Source of the DNA: an uncultured bacterium
Lineage (GTDB): Bacteria > Zixibacteria > MSB-5A5 > UBA10806
Length of the DNA stretch: 64,000 nucleotides
Assembly (NCBI GenBank): GCA_965541585.1
Contig: CBEUCH010000004.1
Location: forward strand, 96,001-160,000
Direction of reading: 5' to 3'
Shown here: in pieces, positions 1-7,098 of the stretch
Layout of the letters: each line of letters begins with the position of its first letter
How positions within the stretch are numbered: the first letter of the stretch is position 1
The notes under the pieces: model-generated
The model's database searches: none
What the model was told of the DNA's origin: nothing
The model's input: the letters and a program-made list of their open reading frames with translations, nothing else
Program-made: the position numbers and the translations under genes

Positions 1-2952
1 CTTGTCGAGAAATCTCCGTCCCTGGGCGGACGGATGGCCCAGCTCGATAAAACCTTCCCTACCATGGACTGCTCTATATGAATACTGGGACCCCGGATGA
101 TGGATGCCGGTCGGCATCCTAATATCAAGCTCCTCACGAATTCAATATTGGTTGGATTGGAGGGTCAGGCTGGAGATTTTGAGGCCAGGGTAAAAAGGCT
201 TCCCCGTTATGTCAGCGAGGAACTCTGCACGGCCTGTGGCCTTTGCGCCAAAAATTGCCCCGTGGAGGTTCCCAGTGAATTCGATTGTGGGATAGGGAAA
301 CGTAAAGCTATTTATTCTCCATTTCCTCAGGCTGTTCCGAATACCTACATCATAGATAAAGAAAATTGCTCTGATTGTGGGGTATGCGCCGAGAAATGTT
401 CGAGCAAGGCCATAAACTTCGATGATCCCGGGGAGGAGATTGACGTTGGAGTGGGGGCCGTTATCGTGGCCACCGGGTTTGACGTTTATGATGCCTCGAG
501 AATCCCCAGCTACGGATATGGCCATTTCGATAACGTGCTGACAAATATGGAGCTGGAAAGAGTTTTAAACGCTTCCGGCCCTACTCGCGGCCATGTAACC
601 AGGCCTTCTGATGGCAAAGTACCGAAAAAGATTGCGTTTATTCAGTGTGTAGGTTCCAGAGGTGAAGGAGGAGAGTTCGGTTGCCAGTACTGTTCGCGCT
701 TCTGCTGCATGAATGCCGTCAAAGACGCCATGCTGCTGAAACAACATGAGCAGGATATCGAGGAGTTGACGATTTTTTATATTGATATTCGAGCAGCAGG
801 TAAGGGCTTTGAGGAATTCTACCAGCGGTCGCTCGACATGCCGGAGTTGAGGTATGTGCGCGGGCGACCTTCTAAAATAATGGAGGACCCGAAGACAAAG
901 GAACTGATCATCTATGTCGAGAACGGTGAAACCGGCGAGGTGAGCACATTCAGGGTCGACATGGCCATCCTCTCGGCAGGGGCAGTGGCTGCCGAGGCAA
1001 ACATGGGTTTGGCTGGTGTTCTCGGTATCGACCTCGATGAAAACGGATTTTTCGAAATCGAAACCAAATACGGCTCACCGCTTCATACGGCCAAAGAGGG
1101 TGTTTACGTCTGCGGCTGCGCCGCCGGGGTCAACGATATCTCCGATTCGGTGGCCCAGGGTTCGGGTGCGGCAGCTGAAGCTGAAAGATATGTTGCGAAA
1201 TCCAGAATCGCCGAGGTCAAAGAGGAGATCGTCCCGCTGGATGTTAGCGGCCCACCGCGAATCGGGGTTTTCGTTTGCAAATGTGGCACAAATATCGCCG
1301 GGGTTATAGACACTGCGGATCTGAAAAAATATGCCCGGGATTTACCTAACGTTGTGTTTGCACGAGAAAGCCTGTTTCTATGTTCTGACGATGGTCAGAA
1401 GCGTCTGCAGGAGACGATTCTCAAAAGGAAACTCAACCGGGTAGTCGCCGCTGCCTGTACGCCTCGCACTCATGAACCGATCTTCCGTGAAAGCTGCGAG
1501 CAGGTTGGCCTGAACCCTTATCTTTTCGAGATGACAAACATCCGCGATCAGTGCTCTTGGGTGCACAGTACTATCCCGGAGACGGCAACCCAAAAGGCCA
1601 AGGATTTGATGAGAATGGGCGTGGCTAAAGCCCGGCATTTAAAGCCGCTCGATATGAAAACTATTCCTGTCGACCAGAGCGTGCTGGTTATCGGCGCCGG
1701 CGTGGCCGGAATGCGTGCGGCCCTGGATCTCGAAGCCCAGGGATTTAAGGTATATCTTATTGAGAAAGATGGTCGTCTTGGCGGAGTCCTGAATAATCTG
1801 ACCAGGGTTTACCCCGCCGATCTGCAGGCGGTTGAGCTGGCGCGCACCATGGTGGAAAAAATACGCGGTAGCCGGGTGGAGGTAATGGCCTCAACCGAGA
1901 TAAATTCCGTTTTGGGATTCGTGGGAAATTTCGACGTCTCCACTACCAGTGGTAATTTCATAGTCGGAACCATAGTCGTAGCCACCGGTGCAGATCTTTA
2001 TAAGCCCGATGGGGAATTCGGATACGGAAAGTTTGAGAATGTCATTACCAACCAGGAGCTCGAGAATATTTTACACGATGCAAAGGGTGAAATCAAAATA
2101 AAGGGCGAATCGCCGAATACGGTGGTTTTTATCCAGTGTGTCGGCTCTCGAAACCCTGAGAAAAACGCTGCCTGTTCCCGCTTTTGTTGTCCGACAACCA
2201 TCAAACAGGCCATCCGCTTGCGGGAAGGCGGCATAAACGTGATGGTTCTGTATCGTGACATGCGCACCGTTGGCGCCAAAGCCGAGGAACATTATCGTCG
2301 CGCCAGGGCGCTGGGAGTGAAGTTTATACGATATACCCCCGAGAGACTTCCAACGGTATCGGGCAACCGTAACCGCGCTGAAGGCGTCGAAATCCTCGAG
2401 TTGGCCCTGGATCGATGCCTGGAGATCCCCACGGACTATGTTGTACTGGCTGCCGGTATGGTTCCTAACGAAGCCAGCACTGATAAGATCCACGAAATTC
2501 TCAAGGTGCCGAGGGGAGTTGATGGCTTTTTCATGGAGCGCCACGCCAAGCTCGGCCCGGTGGAGACCACCACGGAGGGGGTTTTTCTGGCCGGCTGTGT
2601 CAGTGGCCCCAAAGATATAGCCGATTCGATTGCGCAGGGCTCGGCTGCCGCAGCCAAGGTGGCCTCATTTATCGCGCGCGATACGGTATCGCTGGAGCCG
2701 ACGACCTGTGTTGTGGAACCGGCGTTATGCCGGGCATGCGGCAAGTGTGTGGAGATTTGCGAATACCATGCTCCATCCCTGGTGGAGAGCACCCCCGGGA
2801 TTATGGTTGCGGAGATCAATCAGGCCTTGTGCAAAGGTTGCGGCACCTGCGCCAGTTGGTGTCCCACCGGCGCTATATCGGCTCAGCATTTTACGGATCG
2901 TCAGATCGACTCAATGCTGGAAGCATTGTTCGCAAGCGAGGCCCAGGCATGA
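1..2952 (+). CDS. hdrA: Heterodisulfide reductase subunit A-like flavoprotein, tandem (two FAD modules), probable selenoprotein; 5' end is outside the window
   Basis: Frame 1 reads [29 protein letters not shown](79-81)[15 protein letters not shown], continuing in frame into the 951-aa ORF. It has CxxCxxCxxxCP ferredoxin motifs, QCVGSR/CSRFCC twice, an internal HdrA N-terminal motif GVFVCKCGTNIAG, GAGVAG and a C-terminal 2x[4Fe-4S] domain. Confidence 0.93.
102..119 (+). promoter_or_regulatory. Candidate bacterial SECIS hairpin of hdrA copy 1
   Basis: GGATGCC-GGTC-GGCATCC, a 7-bp stem with a GGUC loop, 20 nt after the in-frame TGA at 79-81. Confidence 0.8.
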
Positions 2953-4626: not shown

Positions 4627-7098
4627 ATGGCGAGTGAATCAAAGAAATCCGGAGAATTGCGCATCGGTGTCTTCGTCTGTGAATGCGGCCTCAATATCGC
4701 CGGTACTGTGGATTGTTCTGCAGTCAGTAAATACGCTGAGACCTTTGACGATGTTGTGGCCGTCATCCAGAACAAATATACCTGTGCCGATCCGGGGCAA
4801 AACGAGATCAAAAAGGCTATCGCGGAACATAAGCTCAACCGGGTTGTAGTGGCATCGTGCACGCCCAAGATCCATGAGCCGACTTTCAGGCAGTGCGTGG
4901 CCGATGCCGGATTGAATCCATACCTGTTTGAGATGGTTAACATCCGCGAGCATTGTAGCTGGGTTCACCAGAGCGAGAAGGAAGCGGCCACCGAAAAGGC
5001 GAAAGATCTGGTTCGCAGCGGGGTGGCCAGGGCGCGGGTGCTGGAGCCGCAGATTGAGACGGAGGTTCCGGTAACGAAAGCGGCGCTGGTAATCGGAGGC
5101 GGCGTGGCAGGTATCCAGGCGGCTCTGGATCTGGCCGATGGCGGGCATAAAGTCTATCTGGTTGAAAAAGAACCGACCGTCGGCGGGATCATGGCGGCAC
5201 TGGACAAGACCTACCCGACCATGGATTGCTCTATATGAATACTCGGACCGAAAATGATGGATGTCGGTCGACATCCCAACGTCGAAATGATGACCTACAG
5301 CGAGGTCGAATCGGTTGCCGGGTTCGTGGGTAATTTCAATGTCACGATCCGAAAAAAGGCTCGCTATGTAGACCCCGCTGAATGCATATCCTGCGCAGAT
5401 TGCGCCGCTGTCTGCCCCGTGGCGGTTCCCGATGAATATCAGCAGGGGTTCTCATCCCGCAAGGCGATTTATATACCATTTCCCCAGGCGGTACCGTCCT
5501 CCTATATCCTGGATATGAAGAACTGCCTGGGAAATAACCCCATTGCCTGCGGCAAATGCGCCGATGCCTGTGATAAAAAATGTATCAATTACGACGACCA
5601 GGACGAACTGGTGAATATCGAAGTCGGCGTGGTTATCGTTGCCACCGGCATGGACGTTTACGATCCGACCGAATACGACGAATACGGTTACACCCGTTAC
5701 GAGAACGTTATAACCAGTATGGAGTTCGAACGGCTGATCTGCGCCGGCGGCCCCACCGACGGTCATTTCATTCGCCCCACCGACCGCAAGATTCCGCAAT
5801 CGATAGGATTCATCCAGTGTGTCGGCTCCCGTTCCCGCAACGGTCGGGGAAACCCTTATTGCAGCAATATCTGCTGCATGAATACGATAAAAGATACTCT
5901 TTTGCTCTCAGACCACTATCCCGGTGTCGAGGCCAAGGTGTTCTATATGGACATCCGCGCTTTCGGCAAGGGCTTCGAGGATCTCTATATGCGCAGCAAG
6001 GAGGAGGGAGTCAAATATATAAGAGGCATCCCCGGGGAGGTCGTCGAAGATCCCGAGACCAATAATATAGTCCTGACCGTTGAAAACACCACCACCGGCA
6101 AACTCGAAAAGCACGAGCTCGAGATGCTGATTCTGTCGCAGGGAGTGATCCCGAGACAGGATGGCGACCAGATCAAGAAACTTCTGACTCTATCGACCAC
6201 GTCCGACGGCTTCATTATGGAATCTCACCCCAAGCTCAAACCGGTGGATGCGCCGACGAGAGGCGTTTATATCGCTGGCTGCGTGGAGTCGCCCAAGGAT
6301 GTCAAAGACAGCGTTACCCAGGCCGGCGCCGCCGCTGCCCGGGCCAGTATTCTGCTCAATGCCGGCAAGACCAGCGTGGAGGCCATCACCTCGCAAATCG
6401 ACGGCGAAAAATGTAACTATTGCGCGCTTTGCTCAAAAGTGTGTCCTTACAATGCTATTCTATCATCGGATAAGAAAACTAAAAAACTGCCGATCGTTAT
6501 TCAGGCTGCCTGCGCCGGCTGTGGAGCCTGCGCGGCAGAATGCCCGCAGGATGCTATCATCATGAGGCACTTTACCGACGAGCAGATCATGGCCCAGATC
6601 GAGGCTATTCTGGCAGTCGAGCCTCACAAGCACCTGTTGACCTTCGCCTGCAACTGGTGCAGTTACGCCGGCGGCGATATGGCCGGGACCTCGAGATTAC
6701 AGTATCCCACAACCAGCAGATTGATAAGAACCATGTGTTCCGGGAGAGTCGATGAGAAATTCGTGATCCACGCCTTCAAACTGGGCGCGCCGATGGTTCT
6801 TGTGTCCGGCTGTCATTTTGCCGATTGCCATTATATCGACGCCGTACACTGGACCCAGAAACGGATGGATAAGCTTTGGAATAAACTGGACAAGCTGGGT
6901 ATACGTGTCGACAGGCTGCAGTTGGAATGGATATCCGCCGCCGAGGGGCAGAAATTCGCCAGGGTAATGCGCGACCTCGAAAGCATGGTTAAAGCCGTCA
7001 CAAAAGAGGAGATCGAATACACAATGAAAGTCCTCAAAGAAGAAGAGGCAAAAAAGAAGAAAAAGGCGGTGGAGACCGGTGCGGAGGTGAGTGTCTGA
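4627..7098 (+). CDS. hdrA: HdrA-MvhD fusion flavoprotein, probable selenoprotein (joins ORFs 4600-5238 and 5254-7098)
   Basis: [19 protein letters not shown], then [10 protein letters not shown](5236-5238)[14 protein letters not shown] in frame. Inserted and C-terminal ferredoxin domains and a C-terminal MvhD module ([34 protein letters not shown]). Confidence 0.93.
5259..5276 (+). promoter_or_regulatory. Candidate bacterial SECIS hairpin of hdrA copy 2
   Basis: GGATGTC-GGTC-GACATCC, 20 nt after the TGA, with a compensatory T-A pair replacing the C-G pair of copy 1. Confidence 0.8.

Follow-up and report, generated by a model that had tools for sequence, protein, structure and literature searches.

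Two hdrA genes of an uncultured bacterium of the Zixibacteria are each interrupted by an in-frame UGA, which raises the question whether these codons end the genes or are read as selenocysteine (Sec). Both genes are found on contig CBEUCH010000004.1 (assembly GCA_965541585.1), in a stretch of 64,000 nucleotides (nt), positions 96,001 to 160,000, referred to here as the window. The original prediction, made from the sequence of this window, described them as paralogous selenoprotein genes with covarying Sec insertion sequence (SECIS) hairpins, split into pieces by open reading frame (ORF) callers. Both UGAs stand inside intact hdrA frames and are very likely decoded, as predicted, by SelB-dependent insertion of Sec. 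This reading is based on the in-frame UGA at the column of Cys197 or Sec197, on the complete Sec machinery of the genome, and on a hairpin linked to the codon.

The UGA codons and the decoding machinery

The first UGA (79..81, + strand) is the predicted Sec62 of hdrA1 and the second (5236..5238, +) the predicted Sec204 of hdrA2, both in frame as originally claimed. Gene hdrA1 covers 1..2952 (+) of the window and starts at C4:95896 (window -104, 105 nt before the window); read-through gives a product of 1018 amino acids (aa). Gene hdrA2 (4627..7098, +) yields 823 aa by read-through, a complete HdrA with U204 fused to MvhD, and scores 1179.3 bits against NF040770 (HdrA2; cut-off 1100). In comparison with solved structures, Sec62 aligns with Cys197 of 5ODC and X197 of 9SFI, and the same column is Cys in 7BKB and 8RVU (positions counted from printed alignments). 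Judging by its matching X197, 9SFI is probably HdrA of M. maripaludis, for which PMC13518236 describes Sec197 and a selenosulphur bond that lies between cluster A3 and FAD. Alignments of homologues and structures thus agree with the expectation of Cys or Sec at this position of HdrA. Both features of a bacterial selenoprotein gene, a UGA aligned in this way and the presence of selA, selB, selC and selD, were found.

The genome (98.2% complete, 0.9% contamination) contains matches to selA (459.9 bits), selB (341.6) and selD (349), all over curated cut-offs, and a tRNA-Sec(UCA) of 75.6 bits. These four genes, for which a check had been proposed, are all located inside about 10 kilobases (kb) of contig C11, and selD carries its own in-frame TGA followed by a GGUCC-loop hairpin. 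SelA was matched in 41 of 41 genomes (the studied one and 40 relatives), in 40 of them over the cut-off. Wherever an available test could have contradicted Sec decoding, the result went the other way, with the machinery present and Cys or Sec in the column of homologues.

A different code, with UGA read as Trp or Gly throughout and no Sec recoding, can be practically dismissed. Nothing beyond the in-frame UGA itself speaks for it, and the column is Cys in homologues. TGA terminates 454 of 1271 long ORFs, which shows that the genetic code is standard, while the sole UCA tRNA is of the long Sec type and tRNA-Trp has the anticodon CCA. This alternative was rejected on the normal use of TGA as a stop together with the two tRNAs.

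Hairpins downstream of the UGA codons

The predicted SECIS hairpins, 1 (102..119, +) and 2 (5259..5276, +), are each built of 7 base pairs (bp) closed by a GGUC loop. The stem begins exactly 20 nt past the TGA in both genes, as the original prediction had it, and the loop follows 27 nt after the UGA. All seven pairs of each stem are Watson-Crick, and both stems are present in minimum free energy (MFE) folds. The hairpins differ in one pair, C-G in hairpin 1 and U-A in hairpin 2, with the change GCC/GTC (Ala/Val) on the 5' arm and a silent change CGG/CGA (Arg) on the 3' arm, again as claimed. The SECIS of E. coli fdhF has GGUC in its apical loop. The bacterial SECIS consensus, as presented in PMC13188914 (Fig. 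2A legend), is comprised of a 4-nt loop starting with GG, a 7-bp upper stem, a distance of 27 nt from UGA to loop and a local MFE below -7.5 kcal/mol. Each of these features is shared by both hairpins, with MFE of -12.7 and -10.2 kcal/mol in 30-nt windows. Compared with that consensus the structure is identical, and all that is notable here is how nearly invariant it is across phyla, a single pair toggling between C-G, U·G and U-A.

Taken alone, the two sites in the window are no more than suggestive, because folding z-scores for hairpins 1 and 2 are only -1.14 and -0.45 over 62 nt (-3.25 and -1.43 over 36 nt) and stems arise by chance in recoded sequences. Random synonymous recoding of both peptides produced a stem of at least 7 bp in 9% and 14% of draws, and seven Watson-Crick pairs with a GGTC loop in 0.6% and 0.3%. 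A genome-wide scan for TGA followed by a GGTC hairpin is unspecific on its own (37 matches in 122,803 TGAs in six frames). The frequency of stems in recoded peptides, and the fact that most stem pairs never vary, would suit an explanation in which conservation of the D-[A/V]-G-R-H-P peptide yields the hairpin as a by-product and Sec is inserted by way of another signal.

That the hairpin is not due to chance follows from the comparison of homologous sites. From 164 loci, 163 motif sites were extracted, of which 143 are distinct by flanking DNA (111 with TGA and 32 with Cys); they were drawn from the best 80 of 563 genome matches and from selected matches in 40 relatives. A stem of at least 6 bp at the fixed register is present in 110 of the 111 TGA sites and in none of the 32 Cys sites, including those whose peptide is likewise D[VA]G[RK]H (0/8). 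Codons of the stem and loop are frozen at the 111 TGA sites (GAT in 110, GGT in 110, CAT in 111), whereas all four Gly codons are used at the position immediately upstream (33/30/23/23). Among the 110 hairpins, the variable pair is C-G in 55, U-A in 44 and U·G in 11, and the C·A mismatch is absent, with about 22 expected under independence (computed from the counts). The missing stem in Cys genes with the same peptide, the freezing of synonymous stem sites in UGA genes only, and the lack of C·A argue against a by-product of the peptide, and we regard this explanation as very improbable.

Changes of the variable pair were followed on a tree of 135 rows built with FastTree, from which 8 short rows were left out and in which trait residues were masked. 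Over its 108 TGA rows, 20 switches of the 5' base and 18 of the 3' base were counted. Across 10 independent pairs, joint movement of the two bases averaged 8.6 cases and opposite movement zero (median p 0.004, range 0.002-0.06). In 36 hand-picked TGA sites, 97.2% of cells are paired and 14 changes are both-sided, and none of 500 shuffles reached as high. Selection on RNA structure, which the original prediction had derived from the paired change between the two hairpins, is not readable from two sequences, but it is shown by the 111 TGA sites on the tree. The supposed cost of the Ala-to-Val substitution is not evident, as Ala and Val codons occur 55 times each at TGA sites and Val is found in 24 of 32 Cys homologues. 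It is only in UGA genes that compensatory change has preserved the downstream hairpin. Among genomes with a hairpin-less Cys hdrA, SelA is still present in 4 of 5, so that the loss of the hairpin tracks the codon and not the genome.

Several observations weigh against this reading. Folding z-scores over 62 nt are weak (-1.14 and -0.45), and since the ranking of homologues followed their similarity to the query, the set of sites leans to the query's clade. The contrast between Sec and Cys comprises only 5 independent pairs (5/5, p 0.0625), too few for significance. All 14 both-sided changes are at one pair, so that 1 of 7 pairs is compensatory and the others are invariant or occasionally broken, the outer G-C pair in 4 of 36 rows. 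Finally, at the TGA site of locus L070 a different stem takes the place of the standard hairpin.

At this last site (L070:5161) the peptide is MMEAWRHP, and the stem, different from the GGUC hairpin, is stronger. Remnants of the hairpin were seen in Cys-form hdrA genes at L065:6163, where it is recognisable, and at L038:6163; they suggest a recent reversion from Sec to Cys, and the genome of L065 retains SelA.

The same data bear on the possibility that each UGA is a genuine stop or a pseudogene lesion, with the downstream parts made as split proteins from ATGs at 97/100 and 5254/5257. In-frame Met codons indeed follow each UGA at the positions where standard ORF calling starts, and the form known from 112 of 120 database entries related to HdrA1 is the downstream one. 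Such a cut would leave the Rossmann GxGxxG motif and the remainder of the FAD domain on different chains, and purine-rich sequence resembling a ribosome-binding site (by eye) precedes the true starts and none of the internal ATGs. Pseudogenes were rejected on the conservation of the same UGA at 111 sites in many phyla and on selection of the hairpin only together with UGA, and we find the whole explanation highly improbable. Sec decoding is consistent with the original view that ORF callers split these genes: the 112 entries start just past the UGA, the frames are intact, and the sequence makes their status as selenoprotein genes very likely. The truncated entries lack CxxU and, of the first FAD-binding fold, the N-terminal part; being cut at the UGA, they are misclassified in domain surveys. 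One full-length Cys form (P0101) is found among the database relatives of HdrA1.

The GGUC-loop hairpin likely acts as an ordinary bacterial SECIS, which would be bound by the SelB of this genome. With about 20 independent compensatory switches, it is an unusually clean natural case of RNA structure selected within a coding sequence.

HdrA1, its gene cluster and further selenoprotein candidates

The original prediction presented the two genes as paralogues; both are indeed hdrA, but they are not equivalent, as HdrA1 is a fused, domain-permuted HdrA dimer. Its module 1 consists of a FAD/TrxR core with C59-x-x-U62 and an inserted ferredoxin, and is without the N-terminal domain. Module 2 has an N-terminal-type Fe-S domain, a second FAD/TrxR core and a C-terminal ferredoxin, and is without CxxC and the inserted ferredoxin. 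The same arrangement is found in 21 of 21 long TGA-type read-through relatives, in which the N-terminal-domain motif is absent before the UGA and present about 400 aa later, and the second DCxxC is absent. In 119 database homologues (a set which leaves out one 1414-aa entry), N-terminal-domain cysteines are kept in 118-119 and Cys occurs at the expected CxxC position of module 2 in only 2. Equivalents of Glu356/Lys409 at the FAD are retained in HdrA1 (E221/K276 and E723/K770) and, according to the 5ODC alignment, in HdrA2; the flavin lysines K276 and K770 are present in 117 and 116 of the 119 homologues. The score of HdrA1 against NF040770 is marginal (1100.4 bits, cut-off 1100) and is summed over the permuted modules. 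The packing of the two modules proposed here is drawn from sequence and literature.

Downstream of hdrA1, and overlapping its stop with the start codon, is a Cys-form mvhD (2949..3419, +; 156 aa), followed by a gene for an HdrD/GlpC-like protein of 385 aa (3426..4583, +), which has a ferredoxin and two CCG domains and no in-frame TGA. Behind hdrA2, a gene for a 49-aa protein (7098..7247, +) with two CxxC motifs, zinc-ribbon-like by eye, gave no Pfam or NCBIfam match, and it is conserved directly behind hdrA2 in related clusters. The genes korD-korA-korB-korG for a 2-oxoacid:ferredoxin oxidoreductase (Kor) directly precede hdrA1 in close packing (L001:14953-17858, upstream of the window), and hdrC and hdrB are detached from the cluster, about 10 kb before korD (L001:3458-4853).

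Cluster organization was compared in 31 loci, picked for carrying a TGA site. The order hdrA1–mvhD–hdrD–hdrA2 is present in 22 of them (21 once a duplicate is removed), mostly behind kor genes, and in 9 distant loci hdrC–hdrB come directly after the small CxxC gene. Clusters with this order come from records titled Zixibacteria, Gemmatimonadota, Planctomycetota and Acidobacteriota, among others; in these clusters, both MvhD and HdrD are of the Cys form. At least two TGA-bearing hdrA matches were counted from the table in 16 of 40 relatives. The MvhD domains of the genome are only two, both in this cluster. A hydrogenase search of this 98% complete genome gave no [NiFe] match (PF00374) over the cut-off and no [FeFe] match (PF02906), and the MvhAG input of the methanogen-type MvhAGD-HdrABC complex was not found. 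Electron-transferring flavoprotein (ETF) is present, and being common it is silent on partnership. A promoter and terminator scan of the cluster gave about as many matches as expected by chance (12 vs 11.0 and 11 vs 12.0), and a search for the ATP-citrate-lyase family was uninformative, as no control genome matched.

Judging from gene order only, the co-encoded Kor would be the partner with which the two HdrA modules exchange low-potential electrons, and the HdrD-like protein and HdrCB their partners for high-potential ones. Gene order also points to a physical complex with Kor, which is proposed tentatively. In an equally tentative extension, the conserved cluster kor–hdrA1(U)–mvhD–hdrD–hdrA2(U)-mvhD–(hdrCB) might encode one hydrogenase-independent complex, in which two selenenylsulfide-relay HdrA modules are wired directly to Kor.

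Sec in the HdrA family is already known, so that the finding is a well-supported re-annotation in a new lineage and not new biology. HdrA (NF040770, CxxU) is listed among experimentally verified selenoprotein families (PMC13188914 Table 1). According to PMC1794560, 16 bacterial Sec-HdrAs were counted in 2006, seven of them in one genome, with hdrA-hdrA clusters and copies in Syntrophobacter, Syntrophus, Moorella and others. The genes studied here share with known Sec-HdrAs the CxxU at the 194/197 column and the UGA mis-called as a stop, and with those described in that text the clustered hdrA copies adjoining MvhD/FrhD and GlpC-like genes. They differ in lineage, with Zixibacteria as the nearest named relatives, in the Cys forms of MvhD and of the HdrD/GlpC-like protein, and in having korDABG and no frhAG/mvhAG as neighbours. 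A related korABCD–Hdr–Flx gene cluster of Ca. Endoriftia is described in PMC11636981; in both, a four-subunit 2-oxoacid:ferredoxin oxidoreductase is encoded beside hdrA and hdrBC. Unlike in that description, flx, aclAB and tfrAB were not recognised in the present cluster, which carries two Sec-HdrAs, two MvhD domains and an HdrD-like gene. Literature on Sec in Zixibacteria held nothing evidently on these genes, which subscription literature and BSepDB entries (PMC13326102), outside the search, may well include.

Some further observations were made around the cluster and in other loci. Between hdrCB and kor (L001:8767-14387, - strand) there is a tandem duplicated pair of secreted-looking genes, where two near-identical proteins of about 190 aa alternate with Gly-rich repeat proteins of 578 and 780 aa. 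A second, lone korG-like gene (L001:7946-8482, -) adjoins a gene for a 983-aa GlnD-like nucleotidyltransferase. In the window, an MBL-fold beta-CASP ribonuclease-like gene (7404-8798, +), below all family cut-offs, is apparently unrelated to the cluster. PF10418 has two matches elsewhere in the genome, and the plasmid search gave one partial HdrA match. At locus L148 (827-1330), in a separate cluster, MvhD bears a TGA (FCCNW*GYGA) and a Sec-type HdrA is without the N-terminal domain. In locus L150 (genome G013), which is broken or rearranged, the hdrA2 match starts only at residue 208, just past the Sec site, and there is no hdrA1 in 13 kb.

Other candidate selenoprotein genes were obtained by a codon-model read-through scan, from the best 110 of 213 top rows and a list of Cys motifs. 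At least 10 further candidates were found besides selD, and the total comes to at least 13: selD, the two HdrAs, two kinases and eight that resemble known selenoprotein families. These eight comprise two thioredoxin-like proteins (one with no family match), a TlpA/AhpC protein fused to LVIVD repeats and a T9SS-type tail, and SelW-like, DUF1573, AhpD-like, DUF3179 and Omp28-like proteins. They are located (L165-L168, L171-L174) at C8+14312, C19+16072, C16-77902, C5-164085, C16-83803, C19-560, C12-6063 and C17-73405.

The two remaining genes encode Ser/Thr kinase–TPR proteins: L169 (C9 95927-98617, +; TGA at C9:98414) and L170 (C25 26562-23911, -; TGA at C25:24123). In both, a CxxU-type TGA stands with about 70 codons left to the end, and behind it comes a 6-bp hairpin with a GGUC loop. 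A homology search gave matches in 46 of 151 genomes of the class; among the aligned rows, TGA is at or next to the column in 15 of 32, all with a GG-loop hairpin, and the remaining 17 have neither Cys nor TGA there. A motif scan added 53 distinct sites, in each of which the TGA is followed by 64-82 open codons, but it is silent on conservation of the hairpin because the hairpin is included in the scanned motif. No kinase is listed in the 119-family selenoprotein table of PMC13188914, and none was met in the literature searches. These genes are a candidate selenoprotein family, as judged by sequence, and would be more novel than the HdrA finding.

Possible function of the Cys-Sec pair

In both proteins, the Cys-x-x-Sec pair beside the bifurcating FAD may form a switchable selenenylsulfide or a contact with a cluster, and so pass the low-potential electron from FAD to an N-terminal-type [4Fe-4S] cluster. 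The acceptor cluster would be supplied by a partner subunit in HdrA2, and in HdrA1 by module 2 of the same chain, as in BamE and other fused HdrAs; the intrachain acceptor is proposed because module 2 kept the N-terminal-type domain and lost its own CxxC. By analogy with these systems, we find a low-potential relay, intrachain in HdrA1 and intersubunit in HdrA2, to be somewhat favoured. A 2026 structure paper terms the role of the HdrA Cys-Sec pair unresolved (PMC13518236).

A rather unlikely alternative, which leaves recoding intact, is that the partner's [4Fe-4S] cluster holds Sec as a static fifth ligand, and that Sec takes no part in redox relay. In the crystal structure, as described in PMC9012536, Cys197 is a ligand lent in trans by one HdrA to the N-terminal cluster of the other, and the losses of CxxC and of the N-terminal domain are complementary across the two modules of HdrA1. 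Against this alternative, two cryo-EM studies found the two residues of the pair bonded, as Cys-Sec or Cys-Cys, in one conformational state (PMC13518236; bioRxiv 10.64898/2026.04.10.717634). The first Cys of the motif is also kept at every site found, though the search pattern required it.

The closest parallel in architecture is BamE of the class II benzoyl-CoA reductase of Geobacter metallireducens, described in a preprint as a fused HdrA dimer with a Cys59-Cys62 disulfide between the bifurcating FAD and cluster E3 (bioRxiv 10.64898/2026.04.10.717634). As in that description, HdrA1 is a fused HdrA dimer with the CxxC core first and the relay pair numbered 59/62, and the cluster neighbours resemble BamF (MvhD) and BamD (HdrD-like). 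Residue 62 is Sec in HdrA1 and Cys in BamE, while the Sec of the BamE system sits in BamF. Two points count against a closer equivalence: the second flavin has Lys770 in HdrA1 (116/119) and Gln768 in BamE, and the likeness, taken from the preprint's description and residue numbers, is one of architecture. In a search confined to the cluster, no bamBC or bamGHI were found. Fused HdrAs of ANME and Moorella, whose two cores have lost Cys197 and the N-terminal domain in a complementary way (PMC9012536), belong to a sort classed as type II (PMC12054007). HdrA1 resembles them in its two TrxR cores, complementary losses and retained Glu/Lys flavin residues. Its module order is opposite to that of ANME HdrA3/4, whose N-terminal module has the Fe-S domain and no Cys197 (PMC9012536).

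If the cluster indeed encodes a single complex, HdrA1 would be a single-chain BamE-type dimer with two lysine-equipped flavins. With a relay operating as proposed, it would represent a natural Sec62 version of the Cys59-Cys62 relay of BamE, and would offer a handle on the part played by the Cys-Sec pair in bifurcation. Matched bacterial Sec and Cys variants, including the single-chain fused form, are material for testing the Cys-Sec mechanism.

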